This document shows positions 12,315-61,502 of a stretch of DNA of 64,000 bases, in pieces. A program made the translations under genes and the position numbers. The first letter of the stretch is position 1, and each line of letters starts with the position of its first letter. The stretch is taken from assembly GCF_006345805.1 (NCBI RefSeq), contig NC_043026.1, forward strand, positions 10,230,001 to 10,294,000, in the 5' to 3' direction. The notes beneath the pieces were generated by a model. The model saw nothing but the letters and a program-made list of their open reading frames with translations, searched no databases and had not been told where the DNA came from. Origin of the DNA: Octopus sinensis. Taxonomy: Eukaryota.

Positions 12315-13616
12315 CTACCCTTTTCCTGTCTTCCCTGTATGAATATGTCTGTGTCTTGTTAAGACAGAATTTTGACGAAATGCTTTACCACAGATATTAC
12401 ATTGAAATGGTTTCTCTCCTGTATGAATAAGTTTGTGTCTAGTTAAGTGACTACTATTAGAGAATGATTTACCACAGATATCACAATGATATGGTTGCTC
12501 TCCTGTATGAATATTTTTGTGTCCAGTTAAGTTGCCATTTAGAGTGAATGATTTGCCACAGATATCACAATGATATGGTTTCTCTCCTGTATGAATACGT
12601 CTGTGTTTAGTTAACAAACTACTTTCAGAGAATGATTTGCCACAGATATCACAGTGATATGGCTTCTCTCCAGTATGAATACGTCTGTGTTTAGTTAACA
12701 AACTACTTTCAGAGAATGATTTGCCACAGATATCACAATGATATGGTTTCTCTCCTGAATGAATACGTTTATGTGCAATTAAGACACAATTATGAGTGAA
12801 TGATTTATCGCAGATATCACACTGATACGGTTTCTCTCCTGTATGAAGACGACTGTGTTTTGTTAAGGCAGTATTTTCAGAGAAAGAGTTACCACAAATA
12901 TCACAACGATATGGTTTCTCTCCTGTATGAGTACGCTTGTGTGCAATAACATGACTACTTCTAGAGAATGATTTACCACAGATATCACACTGATACGGTT
13001 TCTCTCCTGTATGAAGACGACTGTGTTTTGTTAAGGCAGTATTTTCAGAGAATGATTTACAACAGATATCACAATGATATGGTTTCTCCCCTGTATGAAT
13101 ATGTTTATGTCTAGTTAAAATACTATTCTGAGAGAATGATTTACCACAGATATCACACTGGTATGGCTTCTCTCCAGTATGAATACGTATGTGTGTAGAT
13201 ACGGCAGAACTGACAGAGAATAGTTTACCACAGATATCACACTGATATGGTTTCTCTCCTGTATGAATACGTATGTGTTTCATTAAGTTTCTATTGTTAG
13301 AGAATGATTTACCACAGACATCACAATGATATGGTTTCTCTCCCGTATGAATCAGTTTGTGATTCATTAAGTTTCTATTGTCAGCGAATGATTTACCACA
13401 GATATTGCAGTGAAATGGTTCCTCTCCTATATGAACATGTTTGTGTCCAGTTAAATGAATACTTTGAGAGAATGAATTACCACAGATTTCACAATGATAT
13501 GGTTTCTCTCCTGTATGAATACGTATGTGTGTAGATAAGTTAATACTTTGAGAGAATGATTTACCACAGATATCACAATGATAGGGTTTCTCCCCCATAT
13601 GAATACGTTTGTGCAT
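12315..13616 (-). CDS. C2H2 zinc-finger protein, array copy 1 (15 fingers)
   Basis: 433-aa uninterrupted finger ORF starting at the Met inside a degenerate first finger and ending [13 protein letters not shown]. Confidence 0.85.
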   Translation of the reverse strand: MHKRIHMGEKPYHCDICGKSFSQSINLSTHIRIHTGEKPYHCEICGNSFSQSIHLTGHKHVHIGEEPFHCNICGKSFADNRNLMNHKLIHTGEKPYHCDVCGKSFSNNRNLMKHIRIHTGEKPYQCDICGKLFSVSSAVSTHIRIHTGEKPYQCDICGKSFSQNSILTRHKHIHTGEKPYHCDICCKSFSENTALTKHSRLHTGEKPYQCDICGKSFSRSSHVIAHKRTHTGEKPYRCDICGNSFSENTALTKHSRLHTGEKPYQCDICDKSFTHNCVLIAHKRIHSGEKPYHCDICGKSFSESSLLTKHRRIHTGEKPYHCDICGKSFSESSLLTKHRRIHTGEKPYHCDICGKSFTLNGNLTGHKNIHTGEQPYHCDICGKSFSNSSHLTRHKLIHTGEKPFQCNICGKAFRQNSVLTRHRHIHTGKTGKG

Positions 13617-14409
13617 AATTAGTTTAATTTCTTTTAAAAAAAGACATCTGTAAAGATATCACAGTCACATGATCTAATCACTTCTCTCATGTGTTCAGAA
13701 GAAATGAATCATACAATTTTTTCACTCTCTTCCAATATTTTGCCTCTCAAATCCCAGTTTATATTTTTTCTTCTTTTTCTTTTTATACTTTATTTCTTGC
13801 AAACAGTTCTTCTGCTGTATTTATGTCCAGTGTTACTTATGTTTAGCAACACTTCAATTAATTTATCCAACTTCAATCAGCACACAGGCTTCTCTTCTTC
13901 ACACTCCAGTTGGTGATGTCCAGAAATTTGGCTAATAACATTTTTTCAGAACAAATGTTTCACAGGAATCCTTCTACAGTTTTGTAAAACCAATCTGATA
14001 CATCTGTTTCGGAGAATATTTTCTTTTAGTCTTTAAAACAGGATAGAGTTGAGGGTTCGTCTTCCGTTACACCACTGTCATCTGATGCTCTGAAATTAAA
14101 GACAAAGAACAGTGTCAGATGTAGAGGCTATTTAAAAAAATAAATGATTCATTTCTATAGAGATAATCTGAAGAGATAAACATTTGTCTTAACTGAGCTG
14201 GATGCTGACAGCACCATAAAGAAGTGCTAACCTCTAAAAGCAGATGGAACATGTGGGTCACCCAGAAAGACAGGCTATGAAGTGCTGAAGAACTTTTCAG
14301 GTGAGATGACAAAGGACCAACATTCCTGGGGCCTTGTTGTACTCAAGAAGATCCACACTTCATAACAGATTTGTTAAGACTCATCCCTCTTCTAGTTAAA
14401 AGCACTTAC

Positions 14410-14566
14410 GGCCATTCCTCATAAAAGTAGCCATGCAATGCCATGTAAAAATGCTGCTACATTCAAATGTCCATGTGGTGCCACATAAAAGCACCCTATG
14501 GCACAATATGTAGTGGTTGGCACTTGGAAAGGCATCCAGTAGAAACCATGACAATTCAGACTGAAG
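14410..14566 (+). mobile_element. RTE-type 3'UTR fragment in the putative intron (repeated in every unit)
   Basis: ggtgccacataaaagcaccc..gtggttggcacttggaaaggcatccagtagaaac resembles the reverse complement of 7810-7880. The complete 3' end is seen only at 62280-62495. Confidence 0.6.
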
Positions 14567-14849
14567 AAGTTAGTCGGGGAATTTTCACAATGCCGATTTT
14601 TGGCAATTTTCCGGAATGTCCGTATCCGAAAACGGGGATTTTTGGCAAAAAAAAATTAATTTTCAATAAACAAATTTGGGAGAAAATAGGGGTGGGCATT
14701 GGTGGAAGTCTTTTATTAATTTATTTTATTTCGTTTCCAAGTAATGTTGTAAACATTAACCAAATAAGGTTTTGGCTTCTAAACATTTCAGTATTTCTCA
14801 AACTAAAACACGCAACAAACGGGGCAACGATGGAGAGTGCAGACGGTAG

Positions 14850-58778: not shown

Positions 58779-59635
58779 ACGGTGTGGGTCTTCACAGTCA
58801 CGGCATATCTCCAAAGGCCTGTGTCTCTTGTCATTGCCTCTGTGAAGCCCACCATTTGAAGTCATCCCTAACCACCTCATCTTATGTCTTCCTGGGTCTC
58901 CCTCTTCCGCAAGTTCCTTCCACTGTTAGGGAGTGACACTTCTTCACAAAGCTCTCCTCATCCATATGCAGCAAAGGAACATACAAACACAGTTGTCTCT
59001 CTTGCACACCACATCTGATGCTTCTTATATTCAACATTTCTCTAAGGGCACTTATACTCTGTCGTGCATGGACACTGACATTACACATCCAGCAGATCAT
59101 ACTAGCTTCATTTCTTTCAAGCCTACATATGTCCTCAACAGTCATGGCCCATGTTACTCTGTCGTGTAGCATGGCAGTACACACACATGCATCATACAGT
59201 CTACATTTCACTCTGAACGAGTGGTCCTTTGACACCAGTAGAGGCCGGATATTTCAGAACTTTGCACAGGCTATTCTTATTCTAGTGACAACGGTCTCCG
59301 AGCATCCACACCAACTACAGACATATTCACCTAGGTAACAGAAGTTATCAATTATTTCTAGTTTCTCCCTCTAGCATGTGATGGAATCTGTTTGCTGAGC
59401 ATCTTCGGTGTTTATTGCTCCTGTGCATCTGCCACACAAAAAAGCTGTCAGCCGTAGCCTATACCAGTGTTGCATAACCAGCTCATTTCAGAAGTACCTT
59501 TGAATCGTTGGGTGACACACTGTGCTTAAGGGGACCTACTAAGTCAAGTAAAATTAAAAATGGAAACTGTAGTTGTGGCCGATGCCAGCGCCACCTGACT
59601 GGCCCCCTGTGCCAGTGGAATGTTAAAAGCATCAT
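58779..59635 (-). mobile_element. RTE LINE fragment, unit 9
   Basis: Slightly more diverged copy of 10940-11795. Confidence 0.75.
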
Positions 59636-60141
59636 CAAAAAGTAACATTTTTCTTTTACTGCAAAGCATGCCCCTAATTCAATAAAATTACAAAGGTTAC
59701 CCTGATAACCACCCATAACATGCAAAATGTCTTATTATTTTGTAGATTAAGGAGCCATAATTCGCCCCTGCCCCTCAATTCCAGTGTTAAAACTACATAT
59801 AGTACAGCTGTAGTACATGTGCTGTGTACACTCCTATAACAACGTTTTCTTTACATGCTAAAGATACAAGTAATTCTGCCTCCAACTCAGTCGCATACCT
59901 GTGTTTCACTATGCAAATGTCACCGATGCCCTACCCTGAATAATTATGCCTGATATGTAGGGTTGTCAGGAGGAGGCGTTTTTGTACATTATGGAAAGGA
60001 ATCTGTACAAGCAGTTGTGCAAGAAGGAGAGGCAAATATTACAAAAACAAAACAAAGAAATATAAAATTTTTGAAATATTTTACTCATATTTTCCATTAC
60101 ATGAACCACAAGAATATTAAAAATATATAGTGAACAAGGAA

Positions 60142-61502
60142 CTACCCTATTCCTGTCTTCCCTGTATGAATATGTCTGTGTCTTGTTAAGATAGAATTTT
60201 GAGAAAATGCTTTACCACAGATATCACAATTATATGGTTTCTGTCCAGTATGAGTACGTTTGTGCACATTAACATAACCACTGATAGAGAATGTTTTACC
60301 ACAGATATCAAAATGATATGGTTTCCCTCCTGTATGAATCAGTTTGTGATTCATTAAGTTTCTATTGTCAGAGAATGATTTACCACAGATATTGCAGTGA
60401 AATGGTTTCTCTCCTATATGAACATGTTTGTGTCCAGTTAAATGATTACTTTCAGAGAATGATTTCCCACAGATTTCACAATGATATGGTTTCTCTCCTG
60501 TATGAATACCTTTGTGATTCATTAAGTTTCTATTGTCAGAGAATGATTTACCACAGATTTCACAATGATGTGGTTTCTCTCCTATATGAATACGTTTATG
60601 TGCAGTTAAGACACAATTATAAGAGAATGATTTACCACAGATATCGCAGTGATATGGTTTCCCTCCTGTAAGAATACGCTTGCGTTTAGTTAAGACATTA
60701 TTTTGAGAGAATGATTTACCACAAAAATCACAGAGATATGGTTTCTCACCTGTGTGAATTCGTTTGTGTACAGTTAAGTTACTATTTTGAATGAATGATT
60801 TACCACAGACATCACAATGATATGCTTTTTCACCTGGATGAATACATTTTTTATTCAGTTAAGGTATCATTTTTTAGAGAATGGTTTCTCTCCTGTGTGA
60901 GTACATATGCGTGTAGATAAGTGAATACTTTGAGAGAATGATTTACAACAGATATCACACTGATATGGTTTCTACCCTGTATGAATACGTTTATGTGCAG
61001 TTAAAACACTATTCTGAGAGAATGATTTACCACAGATATCACAGTGGTATGGCTTCTCTCCAGTATGAATACGCATGTGTCTGGCTACGGCAGTACTGAC
61101 AGAGAATACTTTTCCACAAATATCACAATGATATGGTTTCTCTCCTGTATGAATACGTATGTGTGTAGATAAGTTAATACTTTGAGAGAATGATTTACCA
61201 CAGATATCACAATTATATGGTTTCTCACCTGTATGAATATGTTTGTGTCTCGATAAGAAAATACTGTAAGAGAACGATTTACCACAGATATCACAATTAT
61301 ATGGTTTCTCACCTGTATGAGTACGTTTGTGAGCAGTAACATCACCACTCTGAGAGAATGATTTACCACAGATATCACAAGAAAATGGTTTCTCTCCAGT
61401 GTGAATATGTTTGTGTCTAGATAAGTAACTACTGTAAGAGAAGGATTTACCACAGACATCACAATGATAGGGTTTCTCCCCCATATGAATACGTTTGTGC
61501 AT
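60142..61502 (-). pseudogene. ZNF array copy 9: premature stop after 6 fingers, downstream fingers decayed
   Basis: Linker GAG>TAG at 60972-60974, deletion of a CxxC segment near 60880, and substitutions of zinc ligands (e.g. YHFDICG). Confidence 0.75.

Follow-up and report, generated by a model that had tools for sequence, protein, structure and literature searches.

The stretch of DNA analysed here (the window) comprises 64,000 nucleotides (nt) of the 2.72-Gb genome of Octopus sinensis (contig positions 10,230,001-10,294,000; G000:C30) and carries nine poly-C2H2 zinc-finger units on its minus strand. With 140 kb of neighbouring sequence added (204 kb examined in all), the run of units extends beyond the window by four more to a total of 13, and 16 older paralogs lie around it. 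The units consist of 28 amino acid (aa) C2H2 fingers in tandem with TGEKP linkers and a period of 84 nt, they match the Pfam families zf-C2H2 and zf-H2C2_2 at E values of 9e-83 and 5.5e-134, and they are Krueppel-type poly-C2H2 zinc-finger genes. Judged from the assembled sequence, the run is a young tandem set of 13 near-identical zinc-finger (ZNF) genes with patchwork finger arrays. Window coordinates are used throughout and are collected in Table 1; U1-U9 denote copies 1-9, and P-numbers denote the older paralogs by first-finger position.

Six array types (seven blocks, with C counted as two) occur across the units, viz. A (U1, 15 fingers), B (U2, U7, U8, and U10, 14 fingers), B' (U11 and U12, 13-14 fingers), C (U3 and U6, 23 and 25 fingers), D (U4, 11 fingers), and E (U9 and U13), the B/B' array being nearly alike in six units. 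An earlier, sequence-only reading of this DNA had counted 15, 14, 23, 11, 25, 14, and 14 fingers in copies 1-4 and 6-8, with copy 5 left as a question mark, and these counts are confirmed; copy 9 has 15 fingers and one more that is partly deleted. Its picture of nine units with different arrays holds as to the patchwork and is revised in that there are 13 units of six types, the arrays of 23 and 25 fingers stem from the fusion of two genes, copy 5 is unreliable, and copy 9 is broken. The terminal HTGKT finger, described as fixed, does end every unit (10 matches, two of them within U5), and the first finger (xSSYLSRH) is almost as constant, in 11 of the 12 clean arrays. U5 was left out of all finger counts.

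Table 1. Positions of the genes, exchange events, and unit features discussed in the text (window coordinates unless marked G000:C30).
Feature	Position	Strand	Description
U1	12318..13616	-	Type A; 433-aa open reading frame (ORF) from MHKRIH; 15 intact C2H2 fingers
U2	18050..19263	-	Type B; 14 fingers; 1 nt deleted, probably by sequencing error
U3	23686..25698	-	Type C; 671-aa ORF; 23 intact fingers, Ca (14) fused in frame to Cb
U4	30124..31086	-	Type D; 321-aa ORF; 11 fingers
U5	35578..37815	-	C-like; indel-rich; local duplication 35326-36136 / 36129-36961
U6	42230..44406	-	Type C; 25 fingers, two of them gained in tandem ([16 protein letters not shown]); several 1-nt indels
U7	48859..50073	-	Type B; 405-aa ORF; 14 fingers
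U8	54487..55700	-	Type B; 14 fingers; one 1-nt deletion
U9	60145..61502	-	Type E; TAG after finger 6 (60972-60974); ~25-nt deletion after finger 7
U1 fingers 8-10	12738..12989	-	RSSHVIAH, ENTALTKH, HNCVLIAH; tract common to P103942
Fusion step	24441..24567	-	126 nt; QNSVLIRH (terminal-type finger) meets helix of first-type finger SHSSYLYRH near 24503
P-26239	~10,203,250-10,203,850 (G000:C30)	+	Leader tract in common with P-16959; locus L013
P-16959	~10,212,950-10,213,550 (G000:C30)	-	Leader tract in common with P-26239; locus L012
Spacer	13661..18040	.	4.4 kb, repeated between units; leader, intron, 5' exon, repeat relics, 3' flank of next gene
Repeat relics	near 15286-15723 and 16162-17621		High-copy, within the spacer
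Finger exon, non-coding 5' part	13617..14089	-	Acceptor at 14089; decayed leader; frameshifted finger 0; seven upstream ATGs
Intron	14090..15031	-	GT..AG; 942 nt; joint 14089-15032 in one contig, run X8
Upstream non-coding exon	15032..15144	-	Donor GTAAGT at end; 5' end inferred from possible acceptor
P4605	4437..5531	+	Older paralog; intact 55-aa N-terminal leader; intact finger 0; 11 fingers

The same recognition helices recur in different arrays and at different places within them. The positions reported earlier were recovered for QSIHLTGH (finger 2 of copy 1, finger 10 of copy 3, and finger 7 of copy 4), SSGYVNVH (finger 12 of copy 3 and finger 4 of copy 4), and QSINLSTH (finger 1 of copy 1 and finger 4 of copy 9), and this reuse holds at the DNA level, where 71 of the 93 fingers have a relative at no more than 6 differences per 84 nt in another array type; the mode over all finger pairs is 14-15 differences per 72 nt. 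Any two types have just 2-8 fingers in common, B and B' aside. Tests of finger order were made on seven blocks with 93 fingers in 31-43 classes, with U7, U12, U3, and U9 representing their types and one deleted finger of type E dropped from the order and matching tests. Class order is cyclic at all three thresholds, 15 of the 18 recurring finger classes have at least two different downstream neighbours, and reversed order was found in 3/76, 8/56, and 8/49 of the pairs that are single-copy in two arrays. The clearest reversal is that between Ca ([24 protein letters not shown]) and type D, where the opposite order is seen. When D is painted from the other types, seven segments with 28 mismatches in 924 nt are required, and these are taken from C and B' out of order. 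On these grounds the arrays are best described as a patchwork. Among the fingers themselves, inter-helix stretches (63 nt) are 88% identical and helices 60% identical, mean divergence between fingers at four-fold sites is 20-24%, and DNA identity among the fingers of one array is 78-83% in the young units (73-81% in the older paralogs), indicating that homogenisation is weak. Finger classes differ about as much as old paralogs do, and by this comparison the finger pool is old and its arrangement recent.

Exchange of finger blocks across genes is well supported by shared tracts of DNA. Fingers 8-10 of U1 differ from fingers 15-17 of P103942, a gene 90 kb away, at only 1 of 252 nt, and 241 nt of this tract (G000:C30:10332522-10332762) are 100% identical, whereas the finger before the tract shows 23 differences and the finger after it 10 (7-23 per flanking finger), and the two genes are 17.6% diverged in their leaders and 18.7% in their 3' flanks. 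The probability of at most one difference at the 51 synonymous sites of the tract is 6e-4 at 17.6% divergence and 0.03 at 10%. The U1 tract is also 98% identical to P96541 (0/168 differences in fingers 9-10), and a genome search with the tract returned matches at 100%, 98%, and then 90% and 86% among the 40 of 2,358 candidates scored. The transfer between U1 and P103942 could have gone either way. A claim that finger modules are shuffled across genes thus gains from the tract, the patchwork painting, and the cyclic order, with the qualification that reversals are a minority (8/56).

A second kind of event is recorded in type C, where a terminal-type finger runs into a first-type finger, which implies the loss of one whole spacer. 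This junction is present in U3 and in U6 (43152-43278) only, among the matches listed, and it lacks long homology, so that end-joining is its likely route. The longest arrays are accordingly read from their junction as products of a deletion-fusion of two neighbours and not of in-register crossover. Unequal crossover or conversion among 84-bp repeats, which had been put forward as the general mechanism, is consistent with the exchange between genes and does not describe the longest arrays, where fusion took place without long homology.

Exchange also appears to involve the leader exons of the older paralogs. The inverted paralogs P-26239 and P-16959 have in common a stretch of ~590 nt that starts at the acceptor and runs through finger 1, with 14 differences overall and none in the last 168 nt, and the intron and arrays on both sides of it are unrelated; this is likely a conversion tract ending at a finger boundary. 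P116543 and P127570 have ~750 nt of intron and leader in common (11 differences) and no finger. In a set of five paralogs (P116543, P120561, P127570, P149704, and P155413; loci L006-L010, G000:C30 10,345,800-10,385,500) the leader exons are 2.6-11% apart, the arrays share 0-2 close fingers, and the 3' flanks are unrelated. Leaders in this set appear to have been homogenised among genes on both strands.

The non-coding part of the unit, earlier put at ~4.4 kb and nearly identical between copies, is indeed so: spacers are 95.4-97.8% identical to that of copy 1 by BLAST, and, in 11 spacers without that of copy 5, substitutions amount to 1.3-2.9% of 3,927 gap-free columns. Among 141 informative spacer sites, 47% of site pairs are incompatible, and near sites show an incompatibility of 0.33 vs. 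0.475 when permuted, with 0 of 1000 permutations as low. From this pattern the spacers are recombinant mosaics and hence provide no clock; trees built from the 5' and 3' flanks of these young genes are likewise short and mutually discordant and were not used as one. Because the flanks have been homogenised too, their low divergence is no proof that specificities change faster than flanks diverge, and of that proposal the recent arrangement stands, while the flanks are mosaics and the finger pool is old. The relics within the spacer are high-copy repeats, as their depth in the DNA run X5 is ~1e6 vs. ~1e3. They had been called dead relics of long interspersed nuclear elements (LINEs), a label that we treat as presumptive: Pfam gave no match for either of two relic ORFs, and the three homologues found are all unnamed. 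Intron insertions of 0.7-2.8 kb occur at the same point in U9, U11, U12, and U13 (62433-65218, ~76026-76708, ~82370-83055, and ~88756-90658) and are each unit-specific. Tandem arrays of 166, 154, and 52 bp lie at 7064-7873, 8813-10075, and 3497-3785, and the young run starts at ~9977-9993, where the 154-bp array has its edge, possibly an amplification boundary.

The acceptor of the finger exon is identical in position, and the upstream donor intact, in 13 of 13 units. The joint between them in run X8 is on the minus strand, has 30 letters on its shorter side, and the letters between are marked as not known; X8 is RNA by guess, and the joint occurs in one of four runs, i.e., in one of the three guessed to be RNA. 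It was not seen among the 15 of 52 joints listed for the other three runs, and contigs of X6 and X19 run across the acceptor unspliced. With only 2 differences over 280 nt, the X8 piece that ends at the acceptor derives from the young family and not from paralogs 16-18% away. At least one unit of the young family is probably transcribed. The 5' non-coding exon and its donor are carried by a 270-bp element (3271-3579, 14886-15155, and 15780-16048) that occurs twice per unit and also upstream of older ZNF genes. In the second exon copy (near 15924-16036) the donor is dead (CTAAGT) in most units, and it is intact in U4, U11, and U12.

The young units, like P96541, P103942, and P161118, have a decayed leader and a frameshifted finger 0, so that the protein would begin at MHKRIH; the U1 ORF has 13 residues ahead of finger 1. 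Only short frames are found upstream in the spliced leader, and a conserved upstream ORF across the splice was dropped as a candidate, the longest such frame having 22 codons. KRAB is absent from the best 25 Pfam families for U1, P4605, and P96541, which are finger-type matches only, and no effector exon was seen in the unit, with further-upstream exons and other splice forms outside what was examined. The predicted proteins have neither the N-terminal KRAB in frame with the array that marks KRAB zinc-finger proteins (KZFPs) nor the KRAB-SSXRD-PR/SET order ahead of the array that marks PRDM9, in agreement with the suggestion that this system is KRAB-independent. The best 120 of 5,325 matches to U1 are 37-59% identical, mostly vertebrate, and include no close relative; exact protein look-ups found 0 of 4 and 0 of 9, and an Atlas search gave generic chordate C2H2 clusters only. 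The leader of P4605 (4437-4604), the DNA of which is 17.6% diverged from U1, is lysine/glutamate-rich and is decayed in the young clade; as a 58-aa query it had no homologue among six candidates. The leader/finger family also occurs at 73-85% identity on C1, C4, C5, C18, C27, and unplaced contigs.

We consider these observations to be explained, with good though not full confidence, by a young tandem expansion of effector-less poly-C2H2 genes in which the arrays would have been rebuilt from an old local pool of fingers by ectopic recombination between neighbours. A unit of ~5.6 kb would have been recently amplified in tandem, and its long, near-identical flanks would aid mispairing of units, with unequal crossover and gene conversion as the outcome. 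Resolution inside the 84-bp repeats, in or out of register by one or more fingers, would yield exchanges in multiples of 84 nt that preserve the frame, so that most products would stay coding without selection for the new order. Occasional short conversion tracts would bring in fingers or whole leader exons from older paralogs, purifying selection would retain the fold as single arrays arise and disappear, and the products would be DNA-binding proteins with predicted altered recognition sequences. The patchwork, the tract, the fusion, and the mosaic spacers are read directly in this assembly; by which routes recombination took place, that the genes are translated, and that their DNA binding has changed, we infer.

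Several observations weigh against this history. Import from diverged paralogs is uncommon: of the 135 gene pairs whose leaders differ by 10% or more, only 4 have a finger in common at no more than one difference. Sharing between two arrays is mostly colinear, as free matching does no better than colinear matching in 17 of 21 array pairs and wins in the other 4 by one finger each. The reversal counts vary with the class threshold (3/76, 8/56, and 8/49), and reversals can arise within a single gene by block duplication and loss. The test for recombination within fingers (incompatibility) was not significant (p = 0.18), and half-helix recombination is therefore not claimed, although four different back halves occur with DNRN. 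The exon that carries the fingers has seven ATGs ahead of the finger start, which makes translation presumptive, a full open frame is present in 6 of the 13 units of this assembly, and the arrays are known from one assembly.

The alternative that survives best, although we give it rather little credence, is that the cluster is an adaptive generator of specificities, in which recombinant arrays are positively selected for new targets such as young transposons. Selection was assessed on 94 unique young fingers, pre-filtered for both histidines, along 93 spanning-tree edges, with the 54 closest also taken separately. For the backbone, omega (dN/dS) is 0.29-0.34 (0.32 on the 54 closest edges, p = 1e-7), and a value of ~0.3 indicates that the fold is maintained by purifying selection. 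The comparison of helix with backbone proposed in the sequence-only reading is less uniform at the contact positions, where omega ranges from 0.66 to 1.48 by comparison: against all synonymous sites it is 0.66 on the 54 closest edges (p = 0.15) and rises, with the inclusion of more distant edges, to 0.93 and then to 1.48 over all 93 edges (p = 0.001), and against their own synonymous sites over all pairs it is 1.15. The adaptive alternative is favoured by the value of 1.48, by the 18 non-synonymous and no synonymous changes in contact codons on the 54 closest edges, and by entropy, which is highest at contact positions -1, 2, 3, and 6 (2.65-3.13 bits). The share of amino-acid diversity that falls on contact sites points the same way in types B, B', C, and D (0.41-0.47; 0.36-0.37 in A and E), which exceed all 16 older paralogs (0.30-0.39), the median of 120 mostly vertebrate matches being 0.29 and the top value 0.48; the positions taken as contact sites (-1, 2, 3, and 6) may differ from those defined in PMC5519329. 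Octopus ZNFs as a class have in addition been predicted to match transposable elements (TEs) (PMC10547256). Against it stand the values of 0.66 and 1.15, the similar contact omega of 1.2-1.5 in the older paralogs, and the violation of dN/dS assumptions by conversion, as described in PMC5519329. Type E is moreover broken, a near-identical B/B' array is found in six units, no effector domain was found in the predicted proteins, and any targets are putative. Adaptive diversification, new binding specificities, and an anti-transposon role are thus readings that go beyond the evidence of the sequence.

A wider version, which we regard as improbable, holds that the whole cluster is a multi-gene finger library, with blocks of fingers and leader exons passed on by conversion between paralogs in tandem or inverted orientation, each animal having its own repertoire of effector-less DNA binders. 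If this were true, a coding minisatellite of the PRDM9 kind would extend across dozens of genes and be under selection for new targets, either transposons or neuronal regulation.

Somewhat more doubtful still is an assembly artefact, in which error-prone long reads and polishing would have mixed paralogous fingers and inflated the copy number. U5 lends itself to this explanation, as it has 39 short spacer indels vs. 4-14 in the other ten spacers and a local duplication of 810 bp at 90.7% identity (35326-36961), and it is likely unpolished, mis-joined assembly. Single-base indels, one each in U2, U8, and U10 and several in U6, break these units and are probably sequencing errors. The B copies are 0.8-2.2% apart in their flanks and may include allelic duplicates, and spacer mosaicism could stem in part from polishing. 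Among the older paralogs, P-39061 and P-32649 are identical across leader, 15-finger array, and 3' flank (6.4 kb apart; window -39,600 to -31,400; L014-L013), which is either a very recent duplication or an assembly duplicate. However, two units with flank differences of their own carry the fusion junction, and likewise two carry the type E lesions; both the stop and the ~25-nt deletion of U9 recur in U13, outside the window, and type E is therefore truly broken or truncated. In U1, fingers 11, 12, and 14 have at least 7 differences from any other finger in the 204 kb examined and stand beside the shared tract, so that a chimeric origin would take two switches in less than 1 kb, and polishing cannot swap three helices. 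Copy number and unit order are uncertain, and an artefact as the source of the patchwork is argued against.

Least probable is descent from one long colinear ancestor by deletions and local duplications within single genes and with no exchange between genes, which would account for the equality of colinear and free matching in 17/21 array pairs, for B, B', and Cb, which are colinear with 0 reversals, and for the neighbours P-39061 and P-26239, which resemble a deletion series, but which requires an ancestor of 31-43 finger classes, fails as a full account because class order is cyclic, even though most pairwise sharing is colinear, and could yield neither 250 nt of near identity with a paralog that is 18% diverged nor a two-gene fusion.

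Ectopic exchange between young neighbours, the history preferred here, bears on how new zinc-finger specificities arise, which is usually credited to "mutation and recombination" without a captured event. At this locus datable events occur together, viz. a three-finger tract across 18% divergence, a two-gene fusion, and a likely leader-exon conversion between inverted paralogs. Where whole proteins of cephalopod C2H2 families are used for gene trees or dN/dS scans, such histories are mixed. Types A-E represent a small, testable set with which one may ask whether DNA binding is new and whether repertoires differ between individuals.

Clusters of this general kind are known from other animals. 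Poly-finger clusters without KRAB are ordinary in invertebrates (PMC6444547), clustered C2H2 genes of octopods have been published (PMC9795677), the shuffling of domains is named among the ways in which C2H2 genes evolve (PMC5131825; PMC13709654), a survey preprint on TEs and ZNFs mentions internal rearrangement and gene conversion (10.1101/2022.11.29.518450), and frequent gain and loss of fingers is described for primate KRAB-ZNFs (KZNFs; PMC3126818). The locus resembles the coleoid C2H2 expansions (PMC12513265, PMC9068888, PMC9795677) and the zebrafish FiNZ-ZNFs (PMC10547256) in being clustered and lineage-specific and in the link to TEs that has been proposed or predicted for them. The cephalopod papers, in the parts consulted, work at the level of whole genes (PMC12513265, PMC9068888), and the words "recombination" and "gene conversion" are absent from PMC12513265. 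We found no report of finger exchange in cephalopods in a literature lacking most subscription papers, and older papers on primate ZNF subfamilies and on the first octopus genome may describe inter-gene exchange. The zebrafish FiNZ-ZNFs have an N-terminal domain, whereas the young octopus units are without an N-terminal leader; the same paper predicts, and does not show, that octopus ZNFs bind TEs (PMC10547256). The ZF271-like/APEZ genes of hemipterans are closer in form, being effector-less poly-C2H2 tandem clusters with pseudogenes and variable arrays, and their authors liken this variation to array shuffling (PMC6444547); they belong to an independent lineage, and the passages of PMC6444547 contain no base-level conversion tract.

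With PRDM9 the locus probably has in common that 84-bp finger repeats are remodelled by conversion and duplication (PMC5519329). Diversity may be concentrated at contact residues in both, with a share of 0.41-0.47 in types B-D and of 0.41-0.68 in table rows of PMC5519329, where position definitions may differ. Unlike PRDM9, its units lack KRAB, SSXRD, and SET, exchange takes place between genes, and there is no clear positive selection; the very high within-array finger identity of PRDM9-like concerted arrays is also not seen (78-83%). In mouse KZFP clusters, which are the closest precedent, the flanks are conserved, the finger segment is the least conserved part, and blocks of 2-7 fingerprints are repeated among paralogs (PMC5363842), and fingerprint arrays are strain-specific (PMC12575710). 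The octopus locus is like these clusters in its recent tandem or segmental duplicates, its block duplication, deletion, and repetition, and its pseudogenes (Kauzlaric 2017, PMC5363842; PMC12575710), and it differs from them in that no KRAB or effector exon was seen, the unit is just ~5.6 kb, and the sequence directly shows both a head-to-tail fusion and a DNA-level tract in common with a paralog that is 18% diverged. Conserved flanks, a divergent finger segment, gains and losses of blocks, and pseudogenes, the features of a birth-and-death ZNF cluster, are all present. In its workings the locus is akin to a young KZFP cluster and in part to PRDM9, while being a member of neither family, and it is a clean example, in a new lineage, of the process known from mouse zinc-finger clusters.

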